Below, one piece after another: positions 18,679-63,278 of a stretch of DNA of 64,000 nt. Positions within the stretch are counted from its first letter, which is position 1; each line of letters begins with the position of its first letter. The notes under the pieces were generated by a model. That model ran no database searches and was not told where the DNA came from. It worked only from the letters and a program-made list of their open reading frames with translations. The position numbers and the translations under genes are program-made. Origin of the DNA: Treponemataceae bacterium (GTDB lineage Bacteria; Spirochaetota; Spirochaetia; Treponematales; Rectinemataceae); contig CAXXVZ010000005.1 in NCBI GenBank assembly GCA_963678065.2, positions 736,001 through 800,000 of the forward strand, written 5' to 3'.

Positions 18679-18813
18679 ATCTAACGTTTTGTGCCTCTGA
18701 CGTTTCGGACCGCATCGGCGGGCCGAAATGTGCCTGAGTGAAGTGAGCGCATGCGAGCGGAACGATGGCCGAGGAGCCATGAAATGGCGACGAGCAGGGG
18801 CACGGTGTTAGGC
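18679..18813 (-). repeat. attC site, subtype B
   Basis: atctaac gttttgtgcctctg...caggggcacggt gttaggc. Confidence 0.85.
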
Positions 18814-18833
18814 GATGTGTGTGCGCGACTGTC

Positions 18834-19232
18834 TTACCAAATTACTTTTAGTCCATCTTCTTCATATTTTTTAAAATTTTCATCTTTACTTATTATTCCC
18901 ATCTTTCTATGAAGTGCTTGCCATATCAACATTCGATCAAATGGATCTTTATGATCCTCATAATAACTCAATTCATTATATGTACTGGATTCATCTTCAT
19001 CCAAAGTAATTATTGAACCCAATTGTTTCGCATATTTTGGTAAATCCTTGATCTCTATTCCTTCCAAGGTATATCGGTGCATTCGAACTTTTATCGCTAT
19101 TTCCCAAAATGAAATAGTGCTGATATAGATTCCAGTATCTTTATTTTTAAGTATATCAGATACTCTTTTACTTAACTTATCAGAATCCAATATAGACCAA
19201 ATAAATGTATGTGTATCAAGTAAATACATCAT
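18834..19232 (-). CDS. PIN-domain (VapC-like) toxin
   Basis: YLLDTHTFIW, SFWEIAIK, HKDPFDRMLI. Confidence 0.9.
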   Translation of the reverse strand: MMYLLDTHTFIWSILDSDKLSKRVSDILKNKDTGIYISTISFWEIAIKVRMHRYTLEGIEIKDLPKYAKQLGSIITLDEDESSTYNELSYYEDHKDPFDRMLIWQALHRKMGIISKDENFKKYEEDGLKVIW

Positions 19233-19235
19233 ATT

Positions 19236-19463
19236 TTATCCCAAAAACTCTTCAACAGTAATTTTCCCATCTCCCATGATGGAAAATGATGCTTTCCCAT
19301 TGAGCATACCTATTTTTCGTTGTTTTTTTTCTTCATTCGGTACAAGCATTGCGATAGGTTTTTTTGCTTTCCCATACAGTATCCTAACTTTTTCTCCATG
19401 CTTTACGAGTTCAAGGAGTTCAGAAAAGTGGCTCTTGAATTCTCCAACCGTCATCTCTTTCAT
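19236..19463 (-). CDS. Phd/YefM-like antitoxin
   Basis: MKEMTVGEFKSHFSELLELV; directly upstream of the PIN gene. Confidence 0.8.
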   Translation of the reverse strand: MKEMTVGEFKSHFSELLELVKHGEKVRILYGKAKKPIAMLVPNEEKKQRKIGMLNGKASFSIMGDGKITVEEFLG

Positions 19464-19469
19464 ATCCCA

Positions 19470-19498
19470 AGTATACGTTATTCTTTTCAAGTTGTCAA
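19470..19498 (-). promoter_or_regulatory. Sigma70 promoter, probably leaderless
   Basis: TTGACA-17-TATACT-6 nt-ATG. Confidence 0.75.
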
Positions 19499-19520
19499 CT
19501 ATATCTCGCGCACACATTTC

Positions 19521-19660
19521 GCCTAACGTTTCCGGCCTGCGACGTTTTGGCCCGCATCGGCGGGACAAAATGTGCCTGAATGAAACGAGCGCATGCGAGT
19601 GCAATGAAGGCCGAAGAAGGAGCCGAAGGCGACTGATGAGCGTGGGCAGTGCTGTTATGT
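19521..19660 (-). repeat. attC site, subtype D
   Basis: gcctaac gtttccggcctgcg...gttatgt. Confidence 0.85.
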
Positions 19661-19683
19661 GAAGTTTCCCCCGATCTTCAACC

Positions 19684-20136
19684 CTATTCCTTTATCTTTT
19701 CCTGTTTTTTATCTTTTATCTCATGCTTCATGATTTCCAAATATTCTTCTGCATTTACTATACTCATCTCCTTTCCAACATAATCATCCCCATTTCTTGT
19801 TATCAAAACACTGATGCCATGTTCAAGTGCTGCATAATATTGTATTGTATCTTCTAGATCTTTGAACTTCGATGCCAATACCAAATCTATTATTTTTTCA
19901 TCAACATTCACTAGTTTGGTTAATAATCTTAATTTCCGAAGATGCAGCAAGGCTAGTTCTTGCCCTAACCCTTTTTTCACTATGTAATACAAATTTGAAA
20001 ATATCACAGGACTGATATACGCTTCAATTTTTCCCTTTTCTGCCAGTGAGAATAGTGTTGCTGCCGCTGGATAAAATGGCTGACGTTTCAGAAACATATC
20101 CAGGATGATATCCGTATCGATAAATACCTTATTCAT
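19684..20136 (-). CDS. PIN-domain toxin
   Basis: VFIDTDIILD..FKDLED..LITRN. Confidence 0.88.
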   Translation of the reverse strand: MNKVFIDTDIILDMFLKRQPFYPAAATLFSLAEKGKIEAYISPVIFSNLYYIVKKGLGQELALLHLRKLRLLTKLVNVDEKIIDLVLASKFKDLEDTIQYYAALEHGISVLITRNGDDYVGKEMSIVNAEEYLEIMKHEIKDKKQEKIKE

Positions 20137-20378
20137 TTGTATTTATCCGTGAGATAGTCCACATATCCATCATCCATTGCCGAAATATCCACAGCATCAA
20201 GAATTCCAGATAATTCCATAACCAGAGGCGAATAGTGGGGTTCAGTTTTATCTTCAAGCGCAAGGATTTTGAAGTAGTCTTCAACTAATCGGGAAAGACT
20301 TCGTTTCCGTTTTTGAGCATATACTTTGGCGGTTTCTATGACCGTTTGATCCAACTTGAGAGTCAGTTTTGTTTCCAT
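20133..20378 (-). CDS. DUF6364-like antitoxin
   Basis: METKLTLKLD..AKVYA..SLSRLVEDYF; overlaps the toxin start. Confidence 0.8.
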   Translation of the reverse strand: METKLTLKLDQTVIETAKVYAQKRKRSLSRLVEDYFKILALEDKTEPHYSPLVMELSGILDAVDISAMDDGYVDYLTDKYK

Positions 20379-20461
20379 ACATTACCTCGATACGTATAAT
20401 ACTAATAAACAAAATACGTATTGTCAATATCTTTCTCGTACTCTCTCTCGGGGGAAATTTC

Positions 20462-20602
20462 ACATAACGTTTGCCTGCTACGACGTTGTGGCGAGCATCG
20501 GCGAGCCACAATGTGCCTGAGCGAAACGAGCGCAAGCGAGTGTAGCGAATGGCCGAAGAAGGAGCCGCAGGCGACTGATGAGCGTGGGCAGCGCTGTTAG
20601 GT
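20462..20602 (-). repeat. attC site, subtype A
   Basis: Consensus repeat. Confidence 0.85.
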
Positions 20603-20646
20603 GCTGTGCTCCGGCTAATTTTAAATTATGTAATTTGATATTATAT

Positions 20647-21585
20647 CTATAAATAAGGACCCAAGAACTTATCTCCATTGAAATGAATCATGTGAGTTGG
20701 ATTATCAGAAACCCAAACTTCTGTTTCCCAAGCGATTTCTGATACATATTTTGCCATTACTTGTTTATTAGGGAAAGCAGTAACATATACCTTACTCATT
20801 TTTGAAGCTTTGAATAAACGATTCAATTCTATATGTCGCTTGCTATCAACAGGACCATGACTTGTTACAGATTCCACTAAAACCAACCATTTCTTTTGAG
20901 GAAGATAAAATATTACATCTGGCATTTTCCCATGCTGATCAACATCTATACCGATATTTTTAGCATTCGTTTTATCGAAATAGCCCCATTTATCTCCCGT
21001 ATCACCAATATAAATCAGTATTGCGTCATGCAAAAAACGTGGTGCGAATTGTTCAATAATATCCTTTATGAGATTGTTATGATCTCCAGGACTTAACCTA
21101 ATATTTGATATATTATCAAATATTACTGGAATCATTAACATTTTTCTTTCATTCGAATACCTTTCTGCCAAAAAACCAATATCTTTATGAAATTCATCTA
21201 AAGTAATAATATATTCGTATGATTTATAATTTTTTACAACACTAAGAGCAGCAGGGGATATTTGATATACTGCCTTAGGACTATTAACAGGTCGCTCTGG
21301 ATTGTCAGGGTTGTATAAAGCTATTCCTGCCTCTACAAGTTGATGCATGCTAAATCTACGAAATGTCTCTCTGGAATTGGGAGCATATTCCTTTTGGTAG
21401 TATTCTCTTGCATATTCCATCATCGGAGTTATTCCAATAAGTGGATCTTCAGCTTCTTCCCATTTTGAATTTTCTTTAATATTTAATAATGCTAACAAAC
21501 AAAGGGCTGTTCGCTCATTCTGTTGACCTTTAGGTACTTTCAGATCAGAGAGAATTTTCAATGCTTCCTTAATCTTTTCATTCAT
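20647..21585 (-). CDS. BsuBI/PstI-family type II restriction endonuclease
   Basis: YAPNSRETFRR, HGKMPDV, ESVTSHGP, WETEVW..HMIHFNG. Confidence 0.88.
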   Translation of the reverse strand: MNEKIKEALKILSDLKVPKGQQNERTALCLLALLNIKENSKWEEAEDPLIGITPMMEYAREYYQKEYAPNSRETFRRFSMHQLVEAGIALYNPDNPERPVNSPKAVYQISPAALSVVKNYKSYEYIITLDEFHKDIGFLAERYSNERKMLMIPVIFDNISNIRLSPGDHNNLIKDIIEQFAPRFLHDAILIYIGDTGDKWGYFDKTNAKNIGIDVDQHGKMPDVIFYLPQKKWLVLVESVTSHGPVDSKRHIELNRLFKASKMSKVYVTAFPNKQVMAKYVSEIAWETEVWVSDNPTHMIHFNGDKFLGPYL

Positions 21586-23062
21586 ATTCTTTCATCACCT
21601 TCATAAATATATCATCCAAATCCGTTTCGGCATTTTTGAAATATTCTATTCCCATATTTTCTATCTGCTCTTTCGTAGGATATTTTATATTTTTCAGATC
21701 AGTGGCATTGACTTGAGTATGTCCACTAAACTCTCTAAATTTTTTATCAAAATATTCAGTATTAAGGTATACATATAAACCACCAGCTAAATATTTATCA
21801 ATACCATGTTTATTCTTGTGAATAATATTAAGATGATTCTCTGCTGTAAAGTATTCGCCTTTTATATCATTATCTAGTAATAAAAAAGCCTTAATTCTTT
21901 TTTTTTCTTCTTTTGAGGAAAATCTTTTAACTAAAACATAACAACCATTTGTATATGCTATTTTTGATTTTTCATCATCAGTCAAAATGATAGAATTGGG
22001 CTTTTTAGAAACAACTGGCCATATTAACCCATTACCTTTAAAATGAATGGGATAAAGCAAGGGTATTGAATTACTAGAAAGACCACTAACCAATTTTTCT
22101 TTCATTCGAAAATCCACAATTGGACCAGTAGATATTTCTATTCCAAGTTCCATAAATTTGGTAAATATATTATTTTCTTTTTTTATTTTATCCGATACCA
22201 ATGCTGGTATGCGTATATATTTATCTTCATCATGACTATTTACAATCTTACTAAATTCAAAAAATGATTCTGAATAATCGTTTAATGATTTATCCTCAGA
22301 TGAGCTAATGCAAACATTGGGTGGTTGATCATTACCTTTCCGAAGAACAACTATAACATTTTCTTGTAATACTGATTCCTCTTTAAAAGCATCTCTTCGA
22401 GAATTAAAGGTATGTATTTGGATTATTTCTGTTTGTTTTAAAATAAATTTTCTGAATGGGAAAAAATACAACCCATTGCAAAAGCTTCTAGGAAGAATAG
22501 CAACAACAACTCCATTTTTTTGAAGTTGCAAAATGGAAACTGCCAAAAACGCCGAATAAAGATTTGCTGTCTCAACGCCAATATCTCTTAGTGATAAACG
22601 ATATTCAGAATTGCTATTGATTTTTTTATATGGAGGATTCATAATTATATGTGAATATTTTTTATTTAATCCCCAGCCGATATCATAAGCAGAATTTTTT
22701 ATAAAATCCGATTGGATAAGTTTTATTGAAATATTCGAATATTTTTTATACCTGTTTATAACACTATTCAAGTTTTGAATTATTGTTTTATCAAATTCAT
22801 ATGCATCAATATTGATACATCCGGAAAATGATGATTCAATTTTTTTTTCAAGAAAAGCAGAAAACAAAATTCCCAAACCAGCGCCAGGATCAAGTAATTC
22901 GATATTCCCTTCACTATGGCCGTATTTTATCAATAGTGCTGCCATAAAGTTTGCAATTTCTATTGGTGTTAAATATTGACCATATATAGCTTTGTGAGTT
23001 TTTTTTGTTGTAGAAATGCGCTGAGATCGTAAACTATCTAAATGCATCAGGGTATTCATCAC
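21578..23062 (-). CDS. N6-adenine DNA methyltransferase (BsuBI/PstI-like)
   Basis: GQYLTP, LDPGAGLG, NPPY, FSGHTQVNATDL. Confidence 0.88.
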   Translation of the reverse strand: MMNTLMHLDSLRSQRISTTKKTHKAIYGQYLTPIEIANFMAALLIKYGHSEGNIELLDPGAGLGILFSAFLEKKIESSFSGCINIDAYEFDKTIIQNLNSVINRYKKYSNISIKLIQSDFIKNSAYDIGWGLNKKYSHIIMNPPYKKINSNSEYRLSLRDIGVETANLYSAFLAVSILQLQKNGVVVAILPRSFCNGLYFFPFRKFILKQTEIIQIHTFNSRRDAFKEESVLQENVIVVLRKGNDQPPNVCISSSEDKSLNDYSESFFEFSKIVNSHDEDKYIRIPALVSDKIKKENNIFTKFMELGIEISTGPIVDFRMKEKLVSGLSSNSIPLLYPIHFKGNGLIWPVVSKKPNSIILTDDEKSKIAYTNGCYVLVKRFSSKEEKKRIKAFLLLDNDIKGEYFTAENHLNIIHKNKHGIDKYLAGGLYVYLNTEYFDKKFREFSGHTQVNATDLKNIKYPTKEQIENMGIEYFKNAETDLDDIFMKVMKEYE

Positions 23063-23119
23063 TTAGTAGTTTATTCTGAAATCTACTATAGTTCAACTGT
23101 AGCTGACATTATATAGCTA

Positions 23120-24871
23120 CCTGAAATCCCGGGAATAATTTAACCTACAAGACATTTTACGCATAGAACAGAAATAATTCCCACTATTATCACGACATAC
23201 ATAGTGACAGGTCCTTCAGGTGTAGGCATAATGTGTTTAACCTACACAAAGAGGGACTGCCATGTCATGCATAGTCCACCAGAAAGTCGGTCAGCACACC
23301 TACCTGTATGAGTCAGTCTCCTACCGTGATGAACGGGGTAAGCCACGGGCGCATCGGGTTCCCATCGGAAAAGTAGACCCGGAAACGGGACAGGAAATCT
23401 ACAAGCAGGAATACGTGTCGCGTATGGCAGCAGCGGGAACTCCGATCGCTGTCTATTCGCCACCACCGACTTTCACAGAACAGGATGTGCAAAAATCCTC
23501 AGTCCTGCATACCGGCATGGCCCTTTTGCTGAAGCAGTGTGCACAACAAACCGGACTTTCCGAAGTTTTGCGCGATGCATTCCCCCAGACACACGAACTT
23601 TTATTTGCACGTGCCTGCCACATCGTCTGCCGCGGGGAACCGTCCGCATATTGCGAGCAGTGGCTGGAAGACACCGACCTCACGGTTCCCGCCCGGCTCA
23701 GCTCGCAACGGATTTCGGATCTTGTGTCTTCACTGCCAGCATCCCAGGTTCTGCGGTTTTATCAGGCATGGGTCGCCACGCGCAGTGAACAGGAATATCT
23801 GGCGCTGGATATCACCAGCATCTCGTCGTATTCACAGCTCATCGACGATGTGGACTGGGGATACAATCGCGATCAGGAAAAACTGCCACAGGTGAATATC
23901 TGTCTGCTCACCGGGGAAGAGTCACACCTTCCCGTGCGCATGGTTGTCTATGACGGAAGCATCAAGGACGTGAACACTCTGAGAACGACGATGGCCGGTC
24001 TCACCGACGGTATCGGATCAAAGGTTCGCATCGTCACCGACAAGGGCTTCACCAGCAAACGGAATATCGAAGCCATGCTCGCGTTCGGGAATGTGGAGTT
24101 CATCATGGCCCTCCCGTTCACGCTCACCTTTGCGGAAAACCAGGTGCGCAGCGAGAAAAAGGATATCGCGGATATCCGGAATACCATGATGAGCGGCAGC
24201 GATGTCTTCTATGGCGTGACCAAGCGGCGTACATGGGGCACAACGGAGCTGTATACCCACATCTGCTATAACGAGGTGAAAGCGACTCGTGAACGGAACC
24301 ATCTGTATGGCTATGTCGCGAACCTGCGATCGCAGGCGCTGTGCGACCCGTGGAACGAGAAACTGAAAGCCGAGTTTGCAGAATATCTCATCATCAGAAA
24401 ATCGGAGAAGCGAGAGGATGGAGTCACGGTCAGTATCCGCCAGGATGTGGTGGACGAGCATCTGGCTCATGCCGGGTGGATGGTGTGCGTGAGCAATTCC
24501 GTGGATACCGTGCAGGAAGCGATCAGGATCTACCGGGCAAAGGATGTGGTGGAAAAAAGCTTTCTGCGCACCAAGAACAGCCTGGGTATCAACCGGCTAC
24601 GGGTACACTCCCAGCAAGCGATGGATGGAATGATGCTGGTAGCCTTCATCGCATTGATTCTCAACAGTCATATCCATCGGATCATGCTGGAGAAAAACCT
24701 GTACCGGAACATGAGCATGACGGATCTGGTGAAGACGATGGAGAAACTCAAGGTCATGGTCATCGGTGATACGCGAATCGATTTCCCTGCTACCAAGAAA
24801 CAAAAAGAGATTGCAGAGGCTTTCGGTCTCACGAGCCTTTCGGTAGGTTAAATAATAGGCGGGATTTCAGG
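23120..24871 (+). mobile_element. IS1634-family element
   Basis: IRs CCTGAAATCCCG/CGGGATTTCAGG; flanking TAGCTA duplicated. Confidence 0.85.
23262..24851 (+). CDS. IS1634-family transposase
   Basis: LDITSISSYS, WGYNRD..LPQVN, TDKGF, VEKSF. Confidence 0.88.
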   Translation: MSCIVHQKVGQHTYLYESVSYRDERGKPRAHRVPIGKVDPETGQEIYKQEYVSRMAAAGTPIAVYSPPPTFTEQDVQKSSVLHTGMALLLKQCAQQTGLSEVLRDAFPQTHELLFARACHIVCRGEPSAYCEQWLEDTDLTVPARLSSQRISDLVSSLPASQVLRFYQAWVATRSEQEYLALDITSISSYSQLIDDVDWGYNRDQEKLPQVNICLLTGEESHLPVRMVVYDGSIKDVNTLRTTMAGLTDGIGSKVRIVTDKGFTSKRNIEAMLAFGNVEFIMALPFTLTFAENQVRSEKKDIADIRNTMMSGSDVFYGVTKRRTWGTTELYTHICYNEVKATRERNHLYGYVANLRSQALCDPWNEKLKAEFAEYLIIRKSEKREDGVTVSIRQDVVDEHLAHAGWMVCVSNSVDTVQEAIRIYRAKDVVEKSFLRTKNSLGINRLRVHSQQAMDGMMLVAFIALILNSHIHRIMLEKNLYRNMSMTDLVKTMEKLKVMVIGDTRIDFPATKKQKEIAEAFGLTSLSVG

Positions 24872-24903
24872 TAGCTATTATATTTTTGTTGCCGGAGCAT
24901 TGC

Positions 24904-25044
24904 ACCTAACGTTTGCCTGCCTACGACGTTGTGGCGAGCATCGGCGAGCCACAATGTGCCTGAATGGAACGAGCGCATGCGAGTGAAATGAAGGCCGAAG
25001 AAGGAGCCGCAGGCGACTGATGAGCGTGGGCAGTGCTGTTATGT
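24904..25044 (-). repeat. attC site, subtype A
   Basis: Consensus repeat. Confidence 0.85.
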
Positions 25045-25754
25045 GCTGTGTTTTTGGGGCACACCCAGTTTCTTCTCTTCATTTCGATAATTCTTATTCC
25101 TTTACTCTTAACCCTTTGTCTTTGCTTTTCAATACTTTATTCTGATACATAAGTATTTTATTTCTCTATACCATAGCTATTTATATACTTTGACCTGGCC
25201 TCTTTTATTGTATCCTATTACCTATATATTTTATCCCTAACTTTATATTTATGGTTCGACTATTATAGTTCAGTACACGTTTTTCGATGTTTCCAATTCA
25301 AAAATCTATCATTGTTACTCATAAACCATATAGTACATAATACCACCCAATATTTTTCTCTACTTCAAAATCACTTTTTTTGGATTCACCTATTTCATGG
25401 GACATATCTCATGAGAAAAATAGCAGCACCTTAGAAAAGCGTTTTGAACTCTATGATTATCCCATATTCAAGAATCGTATCTTTTTTCTATACCATTTTT
25501 TGTACTGCACATACCAACAACACTGAATATAGCACTGATCCACAATTACTACAGGATTGTTTATTACTAACTCTTTCGTTTTTAGTACAACATGACTTAT
25601 GAATTTACCTTGTAGTCAATGGGGAATATCGCAATTCACTTTGTCCTACTAATGAAAGATTTAGTAACTCAATATCAGGAGATCCTATTTTTGAATACTC
25701 TGACGTCATTCAGGATCATACAGTTCAGTAAGAGATCCGCCCCAAAAACATTGC

Positions 25755-25854
25755 ACATAACGTTCGCCTGCCTACGATGTTGTGGCGAGCATCGGCGAGC
25801 CACAATGTGCCTGAGTGAAGCGAGCGCATGCGAGTGAAACGAAGGCCGAAGAAG
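25755..25854 (-). repeat. attC subtype A, truncated by IS21
   Basis: Repeat stops at ggccgaagaag where the IS21 IR begins. Confidence 0.8.
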
Positions 25855-25950
25855 TGGAAATGGTAAACTGAATTCCCCAGCAGTTGGCAAATAGGATTCC
25901 CCACCCACAGGGGCCTTGGCCGCTATGCTTGCGAGCATGCGGCACAAGAA

Positions 25951-27498
25951 ATGATTACCATGAAGGACTACAACATCGTACGAACAGGGCACAGGCAAGG
26001 ACTCACAGTCAGCGCACTAGCGGTAAAACTTGGCAAGGACCGCAAGACCGTGAGAAAGTACCTGCGCATGGACAATGACCAATTCTTACGGTATCTCGAG
26101 CGAATGGCAGAACGCGGTAAGGCTTTTTCGGTCTACAAGGACGAAATCCTCGAGATTTTTAAAAAGAACCACGAAGGCAGAATGGTCTACTCATCGTCCG
26201 TCCACGACTACTTAAGCGAGAAATACGGAGAGCTTCCAGGCTCGGACCGTACGTTGCGGAACTACCTGACGTATCTCAAGGCATCCGGTGCGATTAAGGT
26301 GGGCCTGTGTCGGGAATATCGTCCTGTGGAGCCTCTGGCCTACGGCAAGCAGGCTCAGATTGATTTCGGCGTAGAGACGACGAACATCGGAAAGGCTTGG
26401 TTTGTTGTCGTAGTACTCTCACGAAGCCGTTACCGCTACGTAGCGGCCCAATCCAGGCCCTTTACCAGCGAGGATGTGATCGGCCATCTCCTGGACGCCT
26501 TCGAGTTTTTTGGCGGTATCACCGAAGAACTCGTCATGGATCAGGACCGGACAATGATTGTGACGGAAAACCTTGGCGACCTCACGACGACAAAAGCCTT
26601 TGCTGAGTTCGTCGCAGAACAGGGACTGCGGCTTCGTGTCTGCCGTGCGGCCGATCCGGAATCGAAAGGAAAGGTCGAGAATGCGGTCAAATACGTCAAA
26701 ACGAGCTATTTCTCGAGCCGCAGCTTCGCGACCTTCGACGAACTCCAGGCAGGCATGCGCAAATGGCTCTTACGAGTGAACGCAAAACTGAGCCAAGCCA
26801 CGCGTCTCATGCCGCTCGCGGACTTCGAAGCGCACGAGAAACCCATCTTGCGGGCGCTCCGAGCGTCTATTTTCCGCGCGGACACCGCATCGGGCTGCCG
26901 AGAGAGCCGTAACGTGGATCAGAAAAGCCTTATATCGATCGCCGCGACCAGGTACTCGGTGCCGAACTCGTACCGGCTCAACGAGGTCACTATCGAGCGC
27001 AAGGACGGACTCATCCTGGTATTCGATACGAAGACGGGTATCCAGATCGCGGCGCATCGCGAAGCGGCAACACCCGGCGGAACGGTGCTGGACAAGGCTC
27101 ACTATCGCGATCGCGAAGGATCCCAGGAAACGCTCCGCGCGGATCTTGTCGCCGCAGTAGATGATCTTCCCGAGTGGGGGAGCTTCGTCGATGGTATCTA
27201 TACCGAGTATCGACGCTACTTCCGGGAGCACGCTGGCCGACTTCGGAAGCTTCTCAAGCGCAACATCGACAGAGAGAAACTCGTGCTTGCATTGAAGTTC
27301 TGCCTGGATAGAGGACTTGCAAGCGCCCAGGATCTCATCGACGCGGTCAACAGCACGACGCCAGTGCCCGCAGTGGCGCCTTCGCCGTACCGCGGCCTTC
27401 ATCAAACCAGAGACCTTCCACTAGTTGCCACACGCTCGGTCAGCGAGTATCAGCGATTCCTCGACGCGCTCGTCGATACGCAGAGGCACGAAGAATGA
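25951..27498 (+). CDS. istA: IS21 transposase IstA
   Basis: QAQIDFG, LSRSRY, ESKGKVE. Confidence 0.92.
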   Translation: MITMKDYNIVRTGHRQGLTVSALAVKLGKDRKTVRKYLRMDNDQFLRYLERMAERGKAFSVYKDEILEIFKKNHEGRMVYSSSVHDYLSEKYGELPGSDRTLRNYLTYLKASGAIKVGLCREYRPVEPLAYGKQAQIDFGVETTNIGKAWFVVVVLSRSRYRYVAAQSRPFTSEDVIGHLLDAFEFFGGITEELVMDQDRTMIVTENLGDLTTTKAFAEFVAEQGLRLRVCRAADPESKGKVENAVKYVKTSYFSSRSFATFDELQAGMRKWLLRVNAKLSQATRLMPLADFEAHEKPILRALRASIFRADTASGCRESRNVDQKSLISIAATRYSVPNSYRLNEVTIERKDGLILVFDTKTGIQIAAHREAATPGGTVLDKAHYRDREGSQETLRADLVAAVDDLPEWGSFVDGIYTEYRRYFREHAGRLRKLLKRNIDREKLVLALKFCLDRGLASAQDLIDAVNSTTPVPAVAPSPYRGLHQTRDLPLVATRSVSEYQRFLDALVDTQRHEE

Positions 27499-28235: not shown

Positions 28236-28296
28236 CCCTCTACCGGGTGGGGATTCCTAGTTGCCATATGGTGGGGAAAACTACTTGCCATTTCCA

Positions 28297-28363
28297 CAAA
28301 GCGAGTGTAGCGATGGCCGAAGAGGGAGCTTGCGACCGATGAGCGTGAACAGCGCTGTTAGTT
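28297..28363 (-). repeat. attC subtype C, partial (right of IS21)
   Basis: gaagagggagcttgcgaccgatgagcgtgaacagcgctgttagtt. Confidence 0.8.
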
Positions 28364-28488
28364 GCAGTCGTGACCTTCGAGCGCGCTTGGATGGGGAGAC
28401 TTGTCTCCTCATCCAATACTCTATCTTGCGCGCGTTCTTCTCTTCCTCTTCTCTTACCCTTATTTTTTCTTTCACGATTGCAACTAAC
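28357..28488. repeat. ORF-less structured cassette, copy 1
   Basis: 132 bp, near-identical to four other copies. Confidence 0.9.
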
Positions 28489-30317: not shown

Positions 30318-30323
30318 ATAATT

Positions 30324-54387: not shown

Positions 54388-54485
54388 TTCTTGTGCCGCA
54401 TGCTCGCAAGCATAGCGGCCAAGGCCCCTGTGGGTGGGGAATCCTATTTGCCAACTGCTGGGGAATTCAGTTTACCATTTCCAGC

Positions 54486-54626
54486 ACCTAACGTTTGCCT
54501 GCCTACGACGTTGTGGCGAGCATCGGCGAGCCACAATGTGCCTGAGCGGAATGAGCGCATGCGAGTGCAGCGATGGCCGAAGAAGGAGCCGCAGGCGACT
54601 GATGAGCGTGGGCAGTGCTGTTAGCG
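54486..54626 (-). repeat. attC site, subtype A
   Basis: Consensus repeat. Confidence 0.85.
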
Positions 54627-54648
54627 GCTGTTTTGCTGCGCTCTTCTC

Positions 54649-55059
54649 CTATCCTCTATATACCTTTATCTTCCCATGTTTTTCCATGTTTTCAAAATCA
54701 TTATCGTTATGCAGTAGTGGTACTTTGGCCATATTTGCATACGTAGCTATTAGGCAATCATATGGTTTTCGTATCGTCACGCCTTTTTTTCTCAATCCTC
54801 TATACAGATCTATTGCATTTTTTGTCACTTCAAGAATATCAAAATCTAACATATGATAACTTTCCATAATCTCTTTCATATCTTTATACACTTTTTCTTC
54901 TCGTATTCCCTGTAAGATCTCTTGATAGATTATAGGACAGAGTAGTATTTTCTGATTATTGAGCAACAGATCATGCAACATATCTACTTCAGGGAGTGCT
55001 TCTTTATTTTCACTAAAATATTCTATCCAGACTGACGTATCGACTACTACTCCTATCAT
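54649..55059 (-). CDS. PIN/VapC toxin
   Basis: VDTSVWI, EILQG, DCLIA, LLHNDNDF. Confidence 0.9.
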   Translation of the reverse strand: MIGVVVDTSVWIEYFSENKEALPEVDMLHDLLLNNQKILLCPIIYQEILQGIREEKVYKDMKEIMESYHMLDFDILEVTKNAIDLYRGLRKKGVTIRKPYDCLIATYANMAKVPLLHNDNDFENMEKHGKIKVYRG

Positions 55060-55250
55060 CTCATTGTTCTCATTTCTTCAAGATTCCCTTCCCAGATATT
55101 TTTTCCTCGGTACTTTATTATTTTTTTCCGAGTATATGCCCGAATATATTCTTCAAGAGCCAGATTGATAACAGCTTTTTTTGTCGTCGCGCCACTAAGG
55201 TTCATAGCTTCTTTGACGAGAGTATCATCAAGTTCAATATTGGTTCTCAT
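55056..55250 (-). CDS. VapB-like antitoxin
   Basis: MRTNIELDD.L..EA..TKK..WEGNLEEMR. Confidence 0.88.
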   Translation of the reverse strand: MRTNIELDDTLVKEAMNLSGATTKKAVINLALEEYIRAYTRKKIIKYRGKNIWEGNLEEMRTMR

Positions 55251-55366
55251 ATTAATCCTCCATACACATTCCATATATAATACATACACATACATCAGTC
55301 AAGGCATTAGTAAATACATTTACGGCATAACGTTATATGCTATCTGATCTCGCGCAGCAATATTGC

Positions 55367-55507
55367 CGCTAACGTTCGCCTGCCTACGACGTTGTGGCGA
55401 GCATCGGCGAGCCACAATGTGCCTGAGCGGAATGAGCGTTAGCGAGTGCAGCGATGGCCGAAGAAGGAGCCACAGGCGACTGATGAGCGTGGGCAGTGCT
55501 GTTAGCT
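55367..55507 (-). repeat. attC site, subtype A
   Basis: Consensus repeat. Confidence 0.85.
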
Positions 55508-55511
55508 GACG

Positions 55512-56306
55512 TTATTTTTTTGCCACTATCAGGTTGTGACTACTTGCTCCCAAACTTGAAAAACAATGTGCTGTACTGATGTGATACTCCCGTAATGCAT
55601 TAAACTCATTTTCATTCATTTTTTCTATATTTGACTTTATCATCGTATACATCCCATCCGATGCACTATGCTCTATTATTCTTAATCCACTTAACTCTAC
55701 TTCATGCTCAATATCTTCCGGTGTTGTGTAGTAACTTATATTCAAAAATGAATCTTTAAAATCGTGTTTCTCCCATGTCGTTTTTAAGAACTCTTCATAC
55801 TCTGCTTTTGAAAAATAGATATTGTTTTTCATAAAGTACGCCAATGCGAATGCTTTATTTATATATGCAATACATACTAATCCATCATCCTTGATAACCC
55901 GTTTTGCCTCTCGTAATGATTGTATCCGTTCTTTTTGTGCCCGTAGATGGTAATATGGACCTAAACTCAATACTGCATCAAATTCTGAATCAGAAAAACA
56001 CGATAAATCGGTTGCATTTACGTTCTGTACCGAGATATTCAAGAGATTGTTTGCTGTTATTGTTTTTTCAATTTCATTGACATTTTCCTGAACCACATCA
56101 GTTGCTACAACGGAATGCCCTTGTTTTGCTAAATTAATTGAATATATTCCATGACCTGCGCCTAATTCCAGTATTCTCGATGAAGGTCGAAGATACTTTT
56201 GAAACAGGTGCATGTTTGTAAAAAACTCAAGTGAATTTGCTTTGCTTGAAAACAATCTATCACGCTCAATCGGAAACTGATAATAAGTATCAAGTTTAGT
56301 GTTCAT
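55512..56306 (-). CDS. Class I SAM-dependent methyltransferase
   Basis: ILELGAGHG, LGPYYHL. Confidence 0.85.
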   Translation of the reverse strand: MNTKLDTYYQFPIERDRLFSSKANSLEFFTNMHLFQKYLRPSSRILELGAGHGIYSINLAKQGHSVVATDVVQENVNEIEKTITANNLLNISVQNVNATDLSCFSDSEFDAVLSLGPYYHLRAQKERIQSLREAKRVIKDDGLVCIAYINKAFALAYFMKNNIYFSKAEYEEFLKTTWEKHDFKDSFLNISYYTTPEDIEHEVELSGLRIIEHSASDGMYTMIKSNIEKMNENEFNALREYHISTAHCFSSLGASSHNLIVAKK

Positions 56307-56329
56307 TATCTTCTCTTCAAAAAAATAAT

Positions 56330-57603
56330 GGCTCTTCGCTGTTTCATGTGGGTAACTGCCCCAGTTTACCGGCGACAATGTAGGTCATGATCTTGAGATT
56401 TTTGATAGTTCGGAATCCTCTGGCTCTGGTCTTTGCTGACTGAATCAGACTATTCAACGATTCAAGAAGCCCATTTGTCACTCCGGATGTAAGCCACCGA
56501 ACGACTCCATTCCAGTGTCGTTTGAGCATCGCAGCAAAATTGATGATTGGGGTAAGCTGTGATCGTGTTGCCCATACTCTCCATTTTTTAAGTTCTTCTA
56601 TGGCTCGAGAAGCCGAGAATTCGAAAAGTCCCTTGAAAATGTTCATCATTCGCCATGCTCGCCCTGTTTTTAACTGTAATCCTGACAAGGTGTTGAGACG
56701 GGCCAAATTCTTAACCGACAGATTGTAGGGGTTGCTCAACCAGACATATTTCGAACCTCTGAGTACCGTTTCCATCGTTGATTCTTCTTTCCGCACGTCG
56801 TTGACTGCTTCACCCAGAAGCTTCATGACATGAAACCGATCAAACGTGAGAGCAGCCTGGGGAAGATGCTCTTCGATCCCGGACATGAACGCCGGCGACA
56901 TATCGGTACAGACCGTCCGTGATAGCAGTTTTCGAGCCTCCATGGGCTTCCAGATGCTCTGTAAAGGCTTTTATAGTGGATGCATCCTTGCCTTCGGTCA
57001 CATATATGGCTTTCCCTGTATCGAGATCGGCCACAACGGTGATGTATGAGTGTCCGCGTTTGGCTGCTGTTTCGTCGATTCCGATTCGTGTGGTTTTCGA
57101 TAAATCTTGTGTAGCCACGTCTTCGGAAACATAATGGTCCATAATTCGCCACACTCGCGTATCGGTGGTAGCTGTCAGTCTGGAAACTGCCTTGACGCTC
57201 ATTTCCTTGACCATGATCATCATGAGGGCTTCGTACAGCAGGGTAAATCCCGATCCTTTACGCGCCCACGGGATATCAATCAGATGAACGCCATGCTCAG
57301 GACAGTCTATCCGCGGAACTCGTGCATGCAGATAGGCTTCATGCTGGAAAAAATTGAGGTGACGCCATGTTTTGGGCATCGTATCGTAGGCTGTACCCTT
57401 GTAATCGCAGGAAAAACACGGAAAACGACTCCCGGGCTTGAACCCAAGCTGTATATCAAGCCGATGTTCTGTTGGTTTGAACTCTATGTTCTCAACAATC
57501 CAGGGTTCAGATAATCCAAGCGCAAGGGCGAATAGTTCTACGTCTTTCATGCTGCTCATCCTACCATGCTTCCTTGGTTACCCACACGATTCGTTGAAGA
57601 GCC
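56330..57603 (-). mobile_element. ISL3-family element with frameshifted transposase (56840-57559 and 56344-56943)
   Basis: GGCTCTTC..GAAGAGCC ends; IGIDE, DMSPAF, FDRFHV, ARGFR; no target duplication. Confidence 0.88.
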
Positions 57604-58010
57604 ATAATTTCTAAATACTCTTCTGCATTTACAATACTCATCTCGTTCTCAACATAATCATCACTATTTCTTGTTATTAATACTTTGATCCCATTTTCCA
57701 ATGCTGCATAATATTGTATTGCATCCTCAAGATCTTTGAACTTTGATGCTAATACCAGATCTATGATCTTTTCATTAACAGTCAATATTTTGGTCAATAA
57801 TCTCAATTTCCGAAGATGAATCAATGCTTCATTCTGAGATGATGCTTTTCTCAATATATAAAAAAGATTTGAGAATATTACTGGACTAATATATACTTCG
57901 ATTTTCCCTTTTTCTGCCATCGAGAATACTTTTGCTGCTGCTGGATAGAATGGCTGCCGCTTCAGAAACATATCCAGGATTATATCTGTATCGATAAATA
58001 CTTTGTTCAT
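57604..58010 (-). CDS. PIN toxin, paralog of 19684-20136, C-terminus cut by ISL3
   Basis: Closely similar protein; last residues read from the IS. Confidence 0.82.
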
Positions 58011-58252
58011 TTGCATTTATCCATAAGATAATTTACATATTCATCATCCATGGATGCGACATCCACATCGTTCAGGATGCCAGATAATTCCATAACAATA
58101 GGCGAATAGTGTGGTTCACCTTTTTCCTCAAGAGAAAGAATCCTAAAATAGTCCTCAACCAATCGGGAAAGACTTCGTTTCCGTTTTTGAGCATATACTT
58201 TGGCGGTTTCTATAACCGATTGATCCAACTTGAGAGTCAGCTTTGTTTCCAT
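58007..58252 (-). CDS. DUF6364-like antitoxin, paralog of 20133-20378
   Basis: METKLTLKLDQ. Confidence 0.82.
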   Translation of the reverse strand: METKLTLKLDQSVIETAKVYAQKRKRSLSRLVEDYFRILSLEEKGEPHYSPIVMELSGILNDVDVASMDDEYVNYLMDKCK

Positions 58253-58331
58253 ACAACACCTCTATACGTATTATACTAATCAATACACTACGTATAGTCA
58301 ACATCTTCTCCTGCTCTCTCGGGGGAATTTC

Positions 58332-58471
58332 ACATAACGTTCTGCCTGTTTGCGACGATGGCGTGAGCATCGGCGAGCGCCATTGTGCCTGAGCGGAATG
58401 AGCGCATGCGAGTGCAGCGAATGGCCGAAGAGGGAGCCTGCGACCGATGAGCGTGAACAGCGCTGTTAGTT
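58332..58471 (-). repeat. attC site, subtype C
   Basis: Subtype C. Confidence 0.85.
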
Positions 58472-58596
58472 GCAGTCGTGACCTTCGAGCGCGCTTGGAT
58501 GGGGAGACTTGTCTCCTCATCCAATGCTATATCTTGCGCGCGTTCTTCTCTTCCTCTTCTCTTACCCTTATTTTTTCTTTCACGATTGCAACTAAC
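58465..58596. repeat. ORF-less structured cassette, copy 3
   Basis: 132 bp. Confidence 0.9.
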
Positions 58597-58730
58597 GTTC
58601 GCCTGCCTACGACGTTGTGGCGAGCATCGGCGAGCCACAATGTGCCTGAGCGAAACGAGCGCAAGCGAGTGCAGCGATGGCCGAAGAAGGAGCCGTAGGC
58701 GACTGATGAGCGTGGGCAGTGCTGTTATGT
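58590..58730 (-). repeat. attC site, subtype A
   Basis: Consensus repeat. Confidence 0.85.
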
Positions 58731-58749
58731 GCTGTTCCCGCGCCATCTT

Positions 58750-59022
58750 CTATTTATATGCGTCTTTCCTATTCTCGATATCCAGAATAAATATTATTAC
58801 TTTATCTTCAACTATTTTGTAGAATACTCTATAATCCCCTATCCTAAATCGATATACCTCTTTCAATTCACCTTTCAATTTCTTGATGTTATTCCCAAAA
58901 TATGGATTCTCTCGCAATACTGGATACACAAAATCATGTATTTTTGCGTAGAGCTGACGATACTTTGGTGACTTGATTTTTTTCTGAAACGTTTCAGTTT
59001 CAGCTATTTTAAAATCAGCCAA
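58750..59022 (-). CDS. RelE/ParE toxin
   Basis: IKKLKG..YRFRIGDYRVFY..R.DAY. Confidence 0.9.
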   Translation of the reverse strand: MADFKIAETETFQKKIKSPKYRQLYAKIHDFVYPVLRENPYFGNNIKKLKGELKEVYRFRIGDYRVFYKIVEDKVIIFILDIENRKDAYK

Positions 59023-59248
59023 TTATGTGATACCGCCCTGCTTCAATATCAGAAAGACCCTTTCTAATATCAGTTTCAAATTTCAATATCTCATTCATCT
59101 CAAACTCATCAACAGAGGAATCATTGACTATATAATTGAGCGTTGCATATTCAATGAAGTTAGAGATTGTCCGTTTTTGACCATCGGCAGCTTTTTTGAA
59201 GAGATCATACACTTTTTCATCCATTCGCACGGTTATCGTTTTTGCCAT
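59015..59248 (-). CDS. RHH antitoxin
   Basis: MAKTITVRMD..RTISNFIE. Confidence 0.8.
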   Translation of the reverse strand: MAKTITVRMDEKVYDLFKKAADGQKRTISNFIEYATLNYIVNDSSVDEFEMNEILKFETDIRKGLSDIEAGRYHIIG

Positions 59249-59430
59249 ATTCACCTCATGCTTCAAATATATTCTATTTCATTCAATATAGCAATATATG
59301 AACCATAAAAATGAATCTATTCACGACGATCAAAACAATGAAACAGAATCATTTATAATTTGGATATAGAATTGACTACACAAAAATGTATCACGATTAC
59401 GTAGTTTCACACAAACCATGCGGGAATTGC

Positions 59431-59570
59431 ACATAACGTTCTGCCTGTTTGCGACGATGGCGTGAGCATCGGCGAGCGCCATTGTGCCTGAGCGGAATGA
59501 GCGCATGCGAGTGCAGCGAATGGCCGAAGAGGGAGCCTGCGACCGATGAGCGTGAACAGCGCTGTTAGTT
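59431..59570 (-). repeat. attC site, subtype C
   Basis: Subtype C. Confidence 0.85.
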
Positions 59571-59695
59571 GCAGTCGTGACCTTCGAGCGCGCTTGGATG
59601 GGGAGACTTGTCTCCTCATCCAATGCTATATCTTGCGCGCGTTCTTCTCTTCCTCTTCTCTTACCCTTATTTTTTCTTTCACGATTGCAACTAAC
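59564..59695. repeat. ORF-less structured cassette, copy 4
   Basis: 132 bp. Confidence 0.9.
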
Positions 59696-59829
59696 GTTCG
59701 CCTGCCTACGACGTTGTGGCGAGCATCGGCGAGCCACAATGTGCCTGAGCGGAACGAGCGCAAGCGAGTGCAATGAAGGCCGAAGAAGGAGCCGCAGGCG
59801 ACTGATGAGCGTGGGCAGTGCTGTTAGCC
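59689..59829 (-). repeat. attC site, subtype A
   Basis: Consensus repeat. Confidence 0.85.
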
Positions 59830-59846
59830 GCTGTGATCCATTTTTC

Positions 59847-60176
59847 TTACTTTTTCAATAATTTCTTTATCAATATATCCTGTACATTTCTTCTACCATC
59901 TATTACTTCATATACATAGACCGTATCAGCACTTATTGTATAAATAATTCTCCACGGTGTTTCAATCAATTCTCTATACTCAGTAATATTTTGATCCATT
60001 AATTCAGGAACAATTCTTCCCTGCTCAGGAAACTGTCCCAACCTCATTATTTTCTCATACAATCTATCAAATATCTTGAATGCTATTTCCTTATTATCCA
60101 ATGCGATATACATAACAATATCATTGAGATCTTCTTCCGCTGAGTTCAGAATCTTGACTTCAAATTTCTGACTCAT
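59847..60176 (-). CDS. ParE/RelE toxin
   Basis: AEEDL..I..YIA.D, FPEQGRIVPE, DGRR. Confidence 0.88.
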   Translation of the reverse strand: MSQKFEVKILNSAEEDLNDIVMYIALDNKEIAFKIFDRLYEKIMRLGQFPEQGRIVPELMDQNITEYRELIETPWRIIYTISADTVYVYEVIDGRRNVQDILIKKLLKK

Positions 60177-60457
60177 TTTATAGTCTCAAGCTTTTTCTTC
60201 AAATCCTTAAACACATCTTGTGCATCTCTGAATTTTCCCTCAACCTTATCCTTTTCTGCCAATTGGAGAATATTCATCAATGCAAATGCAGTTTGCATGT
60301 TCTGGAATGATTCAATATCCAATAGGACAGCTCGGGCTTCACCATTTTGAGTGATAATGACTGGATTCCGACATTCATTCACATATTTCATCATATCAGC
60401 AGCATTTGTCTTAATATATGAAATAGGTTTTATATCAGCCTTCAGATTGATTGCCAT
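60173..60457 (-). CDS. Phd/YefM antitoxin
   Basis: IKPISYIK..PVIITQNGEARAV. Confidence 0.88.
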   Translation of the reverse strand: MAINLKADIKPISYIKTNAADMMKYVNECRNPVIITQNGEARAVLLDIESFQNMQTAFALMNILQLAEKDKVEGKFRDAQDVFKDLKKKLETIK

Positions 60458-60732
60458 ACATATCTCCTGTGTATCAGTACTTATATAATACAATATATGC
60501 ACTGAATACGCAAGGTACACAATCCACTAGAAATCATAAAGCCCACTATCTTCTCTCAAAATGGATCATTGCGGCTAACGTTCTGCCTGTTTGCGACGAT
60601 GGCGTGAGCATCGGCGAACGCCATTGTGCCTGAGCGGAATGAGCGCATGCGAGTGGAGCGAATGGCCGAAGAGGGAGCCTGCATGTGTTTCGTCAAGGCG
60701 AAATACCCGAAAAAATCGTACAAAAACACCCA

Positions 60733-61512
60733 TCAGCCGGTGGGTAATTGTGCCTGGCCTTTCTGCCGCATGAGTGCGTGTTTCATCCGGTAGCTTTCAC
60801 CTTCGAAGAGAATAATGTGACCATGGTGGGCAAGCCTGTCGATCATGGCGGCAGCCATCTGATCGTCCGTGAAGATTGTCCCCCATTTGGAGAATTCAAG
60901 ATTGGTCGTGAGAATAACGCTTCGGCGCTCATAGGAATCGGAAATTATCCTGAACAGGAGCTGGGCTCCTTGCCGGTCGACGGGGACATAGCCCCATTCG
61001 TCTATGATCAAGAGATCAGCCCGAGCGATGGACATAACAAGCCGCTCAAGCGAGCCTTCCTTAAGGGCTTCGGAAAGCCTTACCACCAGCTCTGCAGCGG
61101 TAAAGAACCTGGTACGGAAGGTGCGAGAGCACGCGGTGACGCCAAGGGCTGTGGCAAGATGTGTCTTTCCAGTTCCAACGGGGCCGTAAAGCACCAAGTT
61201 TTTCTTCTCGGCGACGAACTGGGTGGTCATCATTTCCTGTTTCGAAAGCGCCGGCGGCAGCTTCACGCAGGAGAAATCAAAGCCCTCGAAGGTTTTGTAG
61301 ACGGGGAAGGCCGCTTCATGAAGGAATCGTGCCCTGCGGACATCGTCGCGGTTAGCCATCTCTCGCTTCAGGATCTTCAGGAGAAACTCTTCCTGGGGTG
61401 CCTTGGCCTCTTCCTCGCAGATCTTTACCGCGGTCTGGCTGAAGGCCATCTTGCGCAGCAGTACGGAGATTTCGCTGCGCAGTTCGGCACGATTGACACG
61501 CGCTTTTCTCAT
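60733..61512 (-). CDS. istB: IstB ATPase
   Basis: GPVGTGKTHLA, IIDEWGY, IDRLAHH. Confidence 0.92.
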   Translation of the reverse strand: MRKARVNRAELRSEISVLLRKMAFSQTAVKICEEEAKAPQEEFLLKILKREMANRDDVRRARFLHEAAFPVYKTFEGFDFSCVKLPPALSKQEMMTTQFVAEKKNLVLYGPVGTGKTHLATALGVTACSRTFRTRFFTAAELVVRLSEALKEGSLERLVMSIARADLLIIDEWGYVPVDRQGAQLLFRIISDSYERRSVILTTNLEFSKWGTIFTDDQMAAAMIDRLAHHGHIILFEGESYRMKHALMRQKGQAQLPTG

Positions 61513-62981
61513 GACACGGTCTCCGAGTTGCTCATGAGGGCGCGATCGTAGGCTCCGAGGTCGGGTCCCTCGGAGGGAATGCCGTGAAGCCCATCAAAGG
61601 CGACCCTGGAAGCAACCGCGCTAAGGCTGAAACTGTCCAGCCGGCCTCGGGCAATCGCTTCCTCAAGCGAGGTCATGGCGACGTCGAACCCAAAGGTCGT
61701 ACTGCTTTTCACCAGGACTTTCAGCACATTGCGCAGATCAGGCTTTGAGAGTTCGTCCATCGCGACTCGTATGGTATCGTCAACGCCTGCCCTAAAGGCG
61801 CTATTGATCCATGCGCCAGGCTTCTTCATGAGGGTTTCAAGGCTTGTTCGGTAATCGCAGCTGTCGCTCCGCTCGTCGCCATAGACTCTTCGGTGGACAC
61901 ACAACGGGGTTCCTTCGCTGCGGTACACGACGAGTTCATGCGCCTTGAGCCCTACGGTCACTTCGCTGTTCCCGCATTCGGGAGCGCTTGAATACCAATG
62001 CTTTCCGTCAATGCAGAACTTTCCGTAGCCATCCGTGGATACTCGCTCGAAACGCTCGACGATGAAGCTTCGCACCGGCAAAAGCCCTAAAGACTGCCGC
62101 TCCTCTTCGAACAACTCGGCAATATTCTGATTTTTCTTGTAATGCGATCGGTCATGATCTTTCGCCGCTTTTTCGAGCAATTCCTTGTTCCAAGACTCGA
62201 GGCTGTCCACAACCGGCAGAGGAACGAAGAAGTTCCTTCTCGCATAGCCGATCTTGTTTTCGACATTCCCTTTCTCATGGCCTGAAGCAGGGTTGCAGAA
62301 GCTGACCGCAAAGCCATAGTGGCATTTGAACCGAAGGAAAAGCTGGCTCAAGGTGACACGGTCGCGGACCCGTCTGCCTACGCCCGTTGCGTTGTCGAAC
62401 ACGATCCTGGCGGGAACGCCACCTATGTGGCTGAATATATCTTTGAGCCCCTGGGAAACACATTCGGCCGTCTCGCCGCTGAAACACTGCGTAAAGCCCG
62501 CATTGCTGAAGGGAAAGGTCAAGGTCAGGTATTTGACGGTCCTTCGAACGCCGGCCTCGATCAGTTCTGCCTCTCCGAAATCGGCCTGCGCCTCGCCTTT
62601 CGACCAGACGAGCTCAAGAAACCCCTCCGCTTCTTTCCTGGCCGCTTTCCGCCGTTTGACATAGCGCTGGACCAAAGGATATGAGCAGTCGTAGTCGTCG
62701 GGGTGTTCTTCCAGAAGCCTTGTATGGATCCTCATGGCCCTATGGCGCTGCTTGAAACGCATCTTCAGGTCTTCGGCAAGCCATTGATCGATGGTTGGCT
62801 TCCATCGATCAAGTTTCGAGGGAAGCTCGCGGGGCACTTCGGTAGAGGCGTTGAAGTCCTCCTGCTTCATATACTTCGCTGTTGTTTTTCGATCGATTCC
62901 CAGCCGTTCAGCGATCTCGCAGGGACCATAGCCCTGCCTTTGCAAATCTTTGACGTGATCAATCTGGTTCATGTGGAGCAT
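61509..62981 (-). CDS. istA: IstA transposase
   Basis: AQADFG, FDNAT, EKGNVE. Confidence 0.92.
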   Translation of the reverse strand: MLHMNQIDHVKDLQRQGYGPCEIAERLGIDRKTTAKYMKQEDFNASTEVPRELPSKLDRWKPTIDQWLAEDLKMRFKQRHRAMRIHTRLLEEHPDDYDCSYPLVQRYVKRRKAARKEAEGFLELVWSKGEAQADFGEAELIEAGVRRTVKYLTLTFPFSNAGFTQCFSGETAECVSQGLKDIFSHIGGVPARIVFDNATGVGRRVRDRVTLSQLFLRFKCHYGFAVSFCNPASGHEKGNVENKIGYARRNFFVPLPVVDSLESWNKELLEKAAKDHDRSHYKKNQNIAELFEEERQSLGLLPVRSFIVERFERVSTDGYGKFCIDGKHWYSSAPECGNSEVTVGLKAHELVVYRSEGTPLCVHRRVYGDERSDSCDYRTSLETLMKKPGAWINSAFRAGVDDTIRVAMDELSKPDLRNVLKVLVKSSTTFGFDVAMTSLEEAIARGRLDSFSLSAVASRVAFDGLHGIPSEGPDLGAYDRALMSNSETVS

Positions 62982-63146
62982 TCCCTCCTCCCTGCTGGAT
63001 AAATCCTACAGGGTTTTCATCGCCACTTCCTCCCCACGATTTTTATGGGGAATTCTGACGATTTTTCTGTCCATTCCAGTTTGATCTTTTCGGGTATTTC
63101 TAGATTACGCTACACAAGCCTGCGACCGATGAGCGTGAACAGCGCT

Positions 63147-63278
63147 GTTAGTTGCAGTCGTGACCTTCGAGCGCGCTTGGATGGGGAGACTTGTCTCCCC
63201 ATCCAATGCTATATCTTGCGCGCGTTCTTCTCTTCCTCTTCTCTTACCCTTATTTTTTTTTTCACGATTGCAACTAAC
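63147..63278. repeat. ORF-less structured cassette, copy 5
   Basis: 132 bp. Confidence 0.9.

Follow-up and report, generated by a model that had tools for sequence, protein, structure and literature searches.

The stretch of DNA analyzed here, which we call the window, comprises 64,000 nucleotides (nt) of a Treponemataceae bacterium (assembly GCA_963678065.2, contig CAXXVZ010000005.1, positions 736,001 to 800,000). It contains the distal quarter of an integron-like cassette array (18686..64000), which continues beyond the window's right end. The whole array spans positions 754,686-931,571 of the contig (177 kb), with 175 repeat starts and 173 intervals, including 56 cassettes without an open reading frame (ORF). 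Genes and cassette starts lie on the - (top) strand; folding is predicted for the + (bottom) strand. The array is headed by a site that is not attC-like (contig positions 931,560-931,587, - strand, outside the window). This attI-like site consists of two 11-bp arms around 6 bp, a layout that we take to resemble that of Xer dif sites, and lies 327 nt from the stop codon of a co-oriented gene for a tyrosine recombinase of 393 aa (931,898-933,076, - strand). Such 11-6-11 sites also lie downstream of the recombinase in several relatives; in about half of the loci scanned there was no ORF, no site, or another site was picked. A scan for sigma-70 promoters near attI (L011:900-1560) gave no match.

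The cassettes are separated by repeat bodies of about 127 nt between AAC and GTT, and all 175 repeat starts read TAAC|GT. Within the window 28 bodies are intact, the first at 18686..18806 (+ strand) and the others starting at 19528, 20469, 24911, 28489, 30854, 31862, 33028, 33286, 34219, 35064, 37140, 40316, 41525, 43894, 44808, 45787, 46726, 47702, 50036, 51077, 54493, 55374, 58339, 58597, 59438, 59696 and 63279. The bodies contain an inner 9-bp arm and asymmetric spacers (5-7 and 3-4 nt). The IntI-type L-box motif occurs in none of 143 bodies and in all ten of the same genome's canonical array, in a test that covers the motif only and leaves room for other bulges further inside the body. Hence these sites are not canonical attC sites, although an initial annotation of the window had labeled them attC. 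Between copies of one cassette, the body that lies downstream on the - strand is more alike (identity 0.93, 58 pairs) than the upstream body (0.85, 53 pairs). The body thus travels with the cassette upstream of it on the top strand, and the crossover, as it does in integrons, should fall at G|TT of the - strand.

Nearly every cassette is bracketed by an inverted repeat of its own, broken at a fixed position. The initial annotation had noticed this pattern, and its five example end pairs were located exactly. We repeated the comparison with boundaries set from the repeat bodies alone. A long match between own ends (at least five of six matches at positions 12-17) is present in 28 of the 29 window intervals, and the only interval without it is again 55501-58338, where Pfam confirms the ISL3 element. 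Position 11 is Watson-Crick in 0 of the 29 intervals, and position 10 is mismatched in 18. In the first cassette, for example, the arm at the gene-downstream end (R'' side, 18807..18828, + strand) has a G at position 11, and its partner at the cassette start (R' side, 19506..19527, - strand) reads AAT at positions 10-12.

The same pattern runs through the whole 177-kb array. Collapsed by their first 20 nt, the 173 intervals represent 90 distinct cassettes, and in 86 of these the own ends match to position 17 or further. The stem ends at positions 17-24 in 85 cassettes and at position 35 in one. Four cassettes fail: three resemble fusions of two frames (a frame being the pair of ends around a payload) and one has a one-base offset. 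Own ends match at rates of 0.84-0.99 at positions 12-20, followed by 0.72, 0.56 and 0.29 at positions 21, 22 and 23, and non-self end pairs match at rates near 0.25 from position 13 onward. At positions 13-20 true pairs match at 7.4 of 8 positions, non-self pairs at 2.16, and in-array hybrid pairs, which flank one repeat, at 2.11, no better than random. When end pairings are shuffled 10,000 times, the summed matches at positions 13-22 reach at most 303, compared to 781 for the true pairings. On the + strand, position 11 is G.T in 79 cassettes and T.T in 11, but never Watson-Crick. The cassette start carries A at this position in 90 of 90 cassettes, within a consensus that covers positions 1-12 and ends in AAT; the opposite end has G in 79 and T in 11. 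In two cassette starts, near contig position 813,650 and at window 51204, only positions 5-6 disagree with the cassette's own end, possibly as a result of homologous recombination through the repeat. One of them carries the start of the ORF-less cassette.

The consensus at positions 1-12 matches the arms of attI. One possibility is therefore that the recombinase, or an accessory protein, binds the ends as inverted sites in double-stranded DNA and needs no hairpin. We consider this highly unlikely. Positions 13-20 of the cassette start show no consensus yet match within each cassette at the high rates given above, as the claim of private repeats had it, and the bias towards G.T pairs described below points to single-strand folding. 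The earlier suggestion of an extra sequence-specific arm for the recombinase fits positions 2-12 but not positions 13-22, which vary freely.

To see how far the pattern extends, we selected cassettes from other arrays on positions 4-9 only and scored positions 12-15. The filter was needed to guard against false sites, which a generic attC finder had produced at several loci. Among Spirochaetota other than the source whose recombinase lacks the I2 insertion, 40 of 44 distinct cassettes match at positions 12-15 and 43 of 44 are mismatched at position 11 (44 kept from 61 intervals, 10 loci). Among non-I2 Bacteroidota 6 of 9 cassettes match, and the stem stops at position 15 (9 kept from 24 intervals in 5 loci, some of them false sites). 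The repetition in other arrays that had been proposed thus recovers the signature in both phyla. A further scan of Bacteroidota on positions 11-15 is circular and is not counted as support.

Canonical IntI arrays served as controls. A match at positions 12-15 occurs in 0 of 8 cassettes (from 10) of the canonical integron in the same genome, 3 of 63 (from 113) in other spirochaetes and 2 of 30 (from 33) in Gemmatirosa; own ends match over 8-11 nt, with no fixed gap. Of the class 1 cassettes from three plasmid loci, read by eye from a scan, five match over 8-13 nt and one over a shorter stretch. PMC2727003 gives 9-11 nt of own-end complementarity for canonical cassettes. The premise that canonical cassettes need only 7 bp was thus understated. 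By this comparison of sequences, some end extension is general to cassettes, but the long stem with its fixed mismatch is not. The canonical integron of the same genome lies on another contig (G000:C3:97,000-121,000; L001) and has about 10 cassettes with 8-nt end matches. A small private hairpin follows nearly every cassette start there, and likewise in Treponema-type controls.

The array recombinase has a tyrosine recombinase catalytic domain (PF00589, E 6e-39), and R248, K273, H337, R340, H363 and Y372 are invariant across 55 aligned homologues. It begins with a HARP-like domain (Pfam E 1.5e-5, 24.8 bits, just below the cut-off of 25), followed by a SAM_4 domain; the predicted model shows a compact N-terminal domain and a disordered linker. 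We rejected the HARP-like domain as a class marker, since a weak HARP-like N-terminus also occurs in the canonical IntI. The I2 insertion is absent: about 42 residues are missing compared to the IntI of the canonical integron, and the spacing from the lysine to HxxRH is 65, versus 107 in 11 of 11 IntI. The best fold match is XerA (5hxy, E 1e-16), with IntI next. TIGR02249 scores 197 bits against a cut-off of 265, and the Xer family models also stay below their cut-offs (TIGR02224 172/335, TIGR02225 164/330, NF040815 214/220, the last being the best NCBIfam score). In an unrooted tree of 37 rows the 11 IntI form a clade of their own (100/100), with the array recombinase outside it. The tree was built from 42 intended loci, of which five, including both Xer-like loci of this genome, were left out, and has no Xer outgroup. 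Homologues occur in 15 of 68 genomes of the family, 40 of 300 Spirochaetota genomes and 61 of 251 genomes of a Bacteroidota sample, not all of them with arrays. By its position and by co-occurrence, this recombinase is probably the enzyme that acts on the array.

In principle the array could be an ordinary one served in trans by the canonical IntI of the genome, which is a full IntI (450 bits), and the long stem could be a quirk of the lineage. This is barely credible: the canonical IntI has an array of its own, whose sites differ and whose cassette ends match over 8 nt, the L-box motif is missing from the bodies here, and the signature accompanies the non-I2 recombinase in both phyla.

Judging from the sequences, pairing rather than sequence is conserved in the cassette ends: 40 of 52 differences between related frames (30 frame pairs) are mirrored at both ends. 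Tolerated mismatches point to the strand. On the + strand G.T outnumbers A.C by 79 to 0 at position 11, by 194 to 7 within the inner arm (whose register was picked with a bonus for G.T) and by 6 to 1 elsewhere in the stem. Since the tolerated G.T pairs fall on the + strand, the non-coding strand is likely the folded one. Across 89 sites, the predicted folding energy is -45.0 kcal/mol in the circle form and -31.3 kcal/mol in the in-array form. The core is paired (P>0.5) in 87 circle forms but in only 35 in-array forms, and the + strand is the more stable one in 89 of 89 predicted circle folds. The 700-nt 'skip' joints seen in contigs from four sequencing runs contain undefined sequence in between and may derive from paralogous cassettes, and are not counted here. 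Of the roles initially considered for the outer stem, the predicted folds agree with completing the hairpin in an excised circle and with closing the cassette on itself in single-stranded DNA. A loop in sense RNA is rejected on strand bias, since it is the non-coding strand that has the tolerated G.T pairs.

We propose that the ends of a cassette each contribute half of a DNA stem that forms on the bottom strand and likely serves as a recombination arm for the adjacent, Xer-like recombinase without I2. On balance we expect this explanation to be right. Positions 2-12 would form an 11-bp binding arm, and positions 12-15 (to about 22 in the source array) a clamp that closes the internal mismatch. 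For IntI, extrahelical bases set the choice of strand and orientation. Here the enzyme may read strand and orientation from position 11, where the start invariably has an A and the opposite end a G or T. The stem would be complete in the excised circle. Hence the circle should be a much better substrate than the in-array hybrids, and re-insertion at attI should be favored over loss. An enzyme that lacks I2 may need a duplex-like arm, by analogy with XerCD on the CTX site: XerCD, also without I2, recombines the folded site of the CTX phage, whose stem mimics double-stranded DNA (PMC4792948).

Alternatively, the own ends may pair in single-stranded bottom-strand DNA with the gene looped out, and this fold, rather than two in-array hairpins, would be the substrate for excision. 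The private stem would then act as a barcode, restricting excision to one cassette. The idea is compatible with the stem as a recombination arm, and we consider it unlikely, although predicted folds speak for it. We folded cassettes of up to 900 nt together with the repeats on either side. Among 32 distinct cassettes, 25 (8 of 10 plus 18 of 23, one shared) are predicted to pair their own ends at P>0.5, and 3 favor a hybrid hairpin of the in-array form. For the canonical array of this genome, own-end pairing stays at P<=0.01 in 6 of 6 cassettes, with hybrids at 0.34-0.98. These are equilibrium predictions, which ignore folding order, single-stranded DNA-binding protein and the recombinase protein itself. 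Neighboring inner arms cross-pair in 9 of 23 cassettes, and the 15-nt stem of Bacteroidota would close a 1-kb loop far less well. A clean, pre-folded four-way (Holliday) junction with both repeat hairpins intact finds no support in folding, being predicted in 0 of 23 cassettes.

The repeats could also be a footprint of cassette genesis or repair, either made together with the cassette or homogenized by copying from end to end, and have little effect on recombination. Identical frames do surround unrelated genes. In the source array four unrelated payloads share one 23-nt frame, and a second frame encloses three mutually unrelated genes from three genera. End-to-end copying would also mirror substitutions. 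Yet copying would erase the mismatch at position 11, which is kept in all 90 source cassettes and in all but one of the other spirochaetes' cassettes, and the re-use of frames implies that cassettes inherit the repeat rather than form it afresh with every gene. A mere footprint is thus quite improbable. Most pairs of cassettes with the same frame (53 of 62) are simply duplicates. Where one frame surrounds unrelated payloads, new cassettes seem to arise by a swap of payload inside an existing frame. Frames, in other words, seem to be inherited and refilled.

Several observations weigh against the stem as a recombination arm of the adjacent enzyme. The recombinase is linked to the array by position and co-occurrence only, in a genome that also encodes a canonical IntI. 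Half of the 20 Bacteroidota homologue loci showed no cassette nearby. Orientation is not uniform either: one locus (L071, G354:C25) has an inverted cassette block, and in another (L082, G249:C136) the cassettes point against the recombinase gene. The 30 related frame pairs are not independent, with about 3 of 30 expected by chance, and cassettes with homologous flanks show one independent compensatory change versus seven unmirrored differences. Bacteroidota manage with 15 nt, so that minimal need does not explain positions 16-22. Finally, the model leaves excision from the poorly paired hybrids unexplained.

The cassettes of the window all lie on the - strand. The array ends distally at 16430-18685, where the distal-most cassette (GNAT) is followed by an insertion sequence (IS; DUF772 and DDE transposase) and no further repeat. 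The next cassettes contain a PIN toxin gene (18807..19527, stem to position 22), a DUF6364 and PIN_3 toxin-antitoxin pair (19654..20468, stem to 21) and a BsuBI/PstI-type restriction-modification pair with a DDE transposase inside at 23262-24851 (20596..24910, stem to 20). The cassette at 25038..25761 has no ORF of at least 80 aa; its frame occurs in six copies across the array, and its stem reaches position 23. Six gene cassettes with stems to about 18-23 occupy 28615..37139: 28615-30853 with an IS inside, 30981-31861 with a streptomycin adenylyltransferase-like protein (PF04439, E 1e-83), 31989-33027 (Fic), 33411-34218, 34346-35063 (methyltransferase) and 35192-37139. At 37261..41524, two cassettes with unrelated genes share one 23-nt frame: 37261-40315 has a group II intron inside, and 40443-41524 is phosphorylase-like. 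The intron and its reverse transcriptase (37494-39316) lie on the gene strand, outside the repeat bodies; Rfam finds only group II intron pieces over 18000-64000. Eight cassettes with stems to 19-23 follow at 41654..51947, namely 41654-43893, 44021-44807 (HEPN-MNT), 44936-45786 and 45915-46725 (GNAT), 46855-47701 (nitroreductase), 47823-50035, 50163-51076 and 51204-51947 (PIN). Another PIN toxin cassette lies at 54620..55373 (stem to 22). The non-matching interval 55501..58338 holds the start of a DUF6364-PIN cassette, the ISL3 and then a methyltransferase that ends in another frame; it is probably a fusion of two cassettes. Two toxin-antitoxin cassettes lie within 58724..60579, at 58724-59437 (DUF6290-ParE) and 59823-60579 (Phd-ParE).

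The 56 ORF-less cassettes of the array are 128-138 nt long and mostly of one family; one of them is the first cassette at attI. The copy at 28357..28488 (stem to 17) holds an internal hairpin and a long purine run, and further copies in the window lie at 33152-33285, 58465-58596, 59564-59695 and 63147-63278. IS21-family elements sit within repeat bodies at 25762-28357, 51948-54390 and 60580-63147, as well as near contig positions 822,800 and 835,350. Several are inserted at a nearly identical place, which suggests that these elements target a site in the repeat body.

Sedentary chromosomal integrons, especially those of the co-oriented, 'inverted integrase' Treponema type, resemble the array in many ways. 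They share a tyrosine recombinase with an adjacent attI and a long array, single-gene and ORF-less cassettes, toxin-antitoxin and restriction genes, and the GTT/AAC core. They also share a body carried with the upstream cassette, a bias towards bottom-strand folding and own-end complementarity beyond 7 nt. In contrast to them, the recombinase here lacks I2 and falls outside the IntI clade, the bodies lack the IntI-type L box, own ends match over 15-24 nt broken by an invariant mismatch at position 11, and attI has two near-symmetric 11-bp arms. The array would thus work like an integron but falls outside the definition by I2 and L box. With XerCD and the CTX phage attP it shares an I2-less enzyme and a long stem that mimics duplex DNA, and the nearest fold is archaeal XerA. 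However, it has a dedicated enzyme for about 170 cassettes, whereas the phage uses host enzymes at dif.

We found no description of a long stem, a fixed mismatch or an I2-less cassette system in full-text literature, a collection that lacks most subscription work, likely including older analyses of 59-base elements; the 21 non-I2 integrases in the supplement of PMC4889954 may be relevant here. Nor did this literature yield a report of an integron-like class in Brachyspira. The closest parallels are the direct repeats DR1-DR3 and 'xerD' genes of Bacteroidota (PMC4481100, Riemerella; PMC11194056, Chryseobacterium; PMC8635130, xerD-tet(X3)). There, too, non-coding repeats flank ereD and tet(X), and an XerD-like gene adjoins resistance genes. 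In the portions available, none of these papers takes the repeats for attC-like sites or for cassettes of an integron, and in PMC4481100 the mechanism of insertion is called unknown.

A plasmid search with the array recombinase returned 83 records, 50 of them from Acinetobacter. In the one record opened (NZ_CP104737.1, L164:4139-6113), the 'xerD' beside tet(X3) is a homologue truncated by IS26, 53% identical over 182 aa. An attI-like site that bears the class signature marks the beginning of tet(X3), and a half-site from a different frame marks its end (7 of 10 scored positions, A/G at position 11). On the Bacteroides xylanisolvens plasmid NZ_CP072214.1 (L171:320-4190), aadS, ereD and tet(X2) are consecutive cassettes, whose ends match over 10 bp, then A/G, then 4 bp. 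Each scores 10 of 10 with A/G at position 11, as the best of 42, 56 and 25 candidate pairs for tet(X2), aadS and ereD, respectively. The ereD gene is reversed within its frame. The contexts of tet(X4), tet(X5) and tet(X6) contain no matching pair and no site of the class pattern.

The signature likely marks a second, overlooked kind of integron, which, from its sequence pattern, appears to package tet(X2), aadS and ereD. A broader reading is possible but doubtful. It sees a second, independently specified class of integrons in Spirochaetota and Bacteroidota, invisible to IntI-based tools, in which the private stem would define the excision unit by own-end pairing, the fixed mismatch would set the strand, and cassettes would be born by gene swaps in inherited frames, a platform that would package tet(X), aadS and ereD.

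According to PMC4889954, integrons are defined by I2, and other tyrosine recombinases near attC were concluded not to be integron integrases. Here, in contrast, an enzyme without I2 heads an array of about 170 cassettes, and its design offers a testable answer to how a strand can be chosen without I2. The re-use of frames is relevant to how cassettes arise, a problem described as unsolved in PMC4889954 and PMC4792948. A survey of complete genomes found almost no complete integrons in Bacteroidetes (PMC9024848). If our interpretation is true, it would account for the repeats and the 'xerD' genes that neighbor tet(X), ereD and aadS, and it would provide a sequence signature for the surveillance of resistance genes that leave Bacteroidota.

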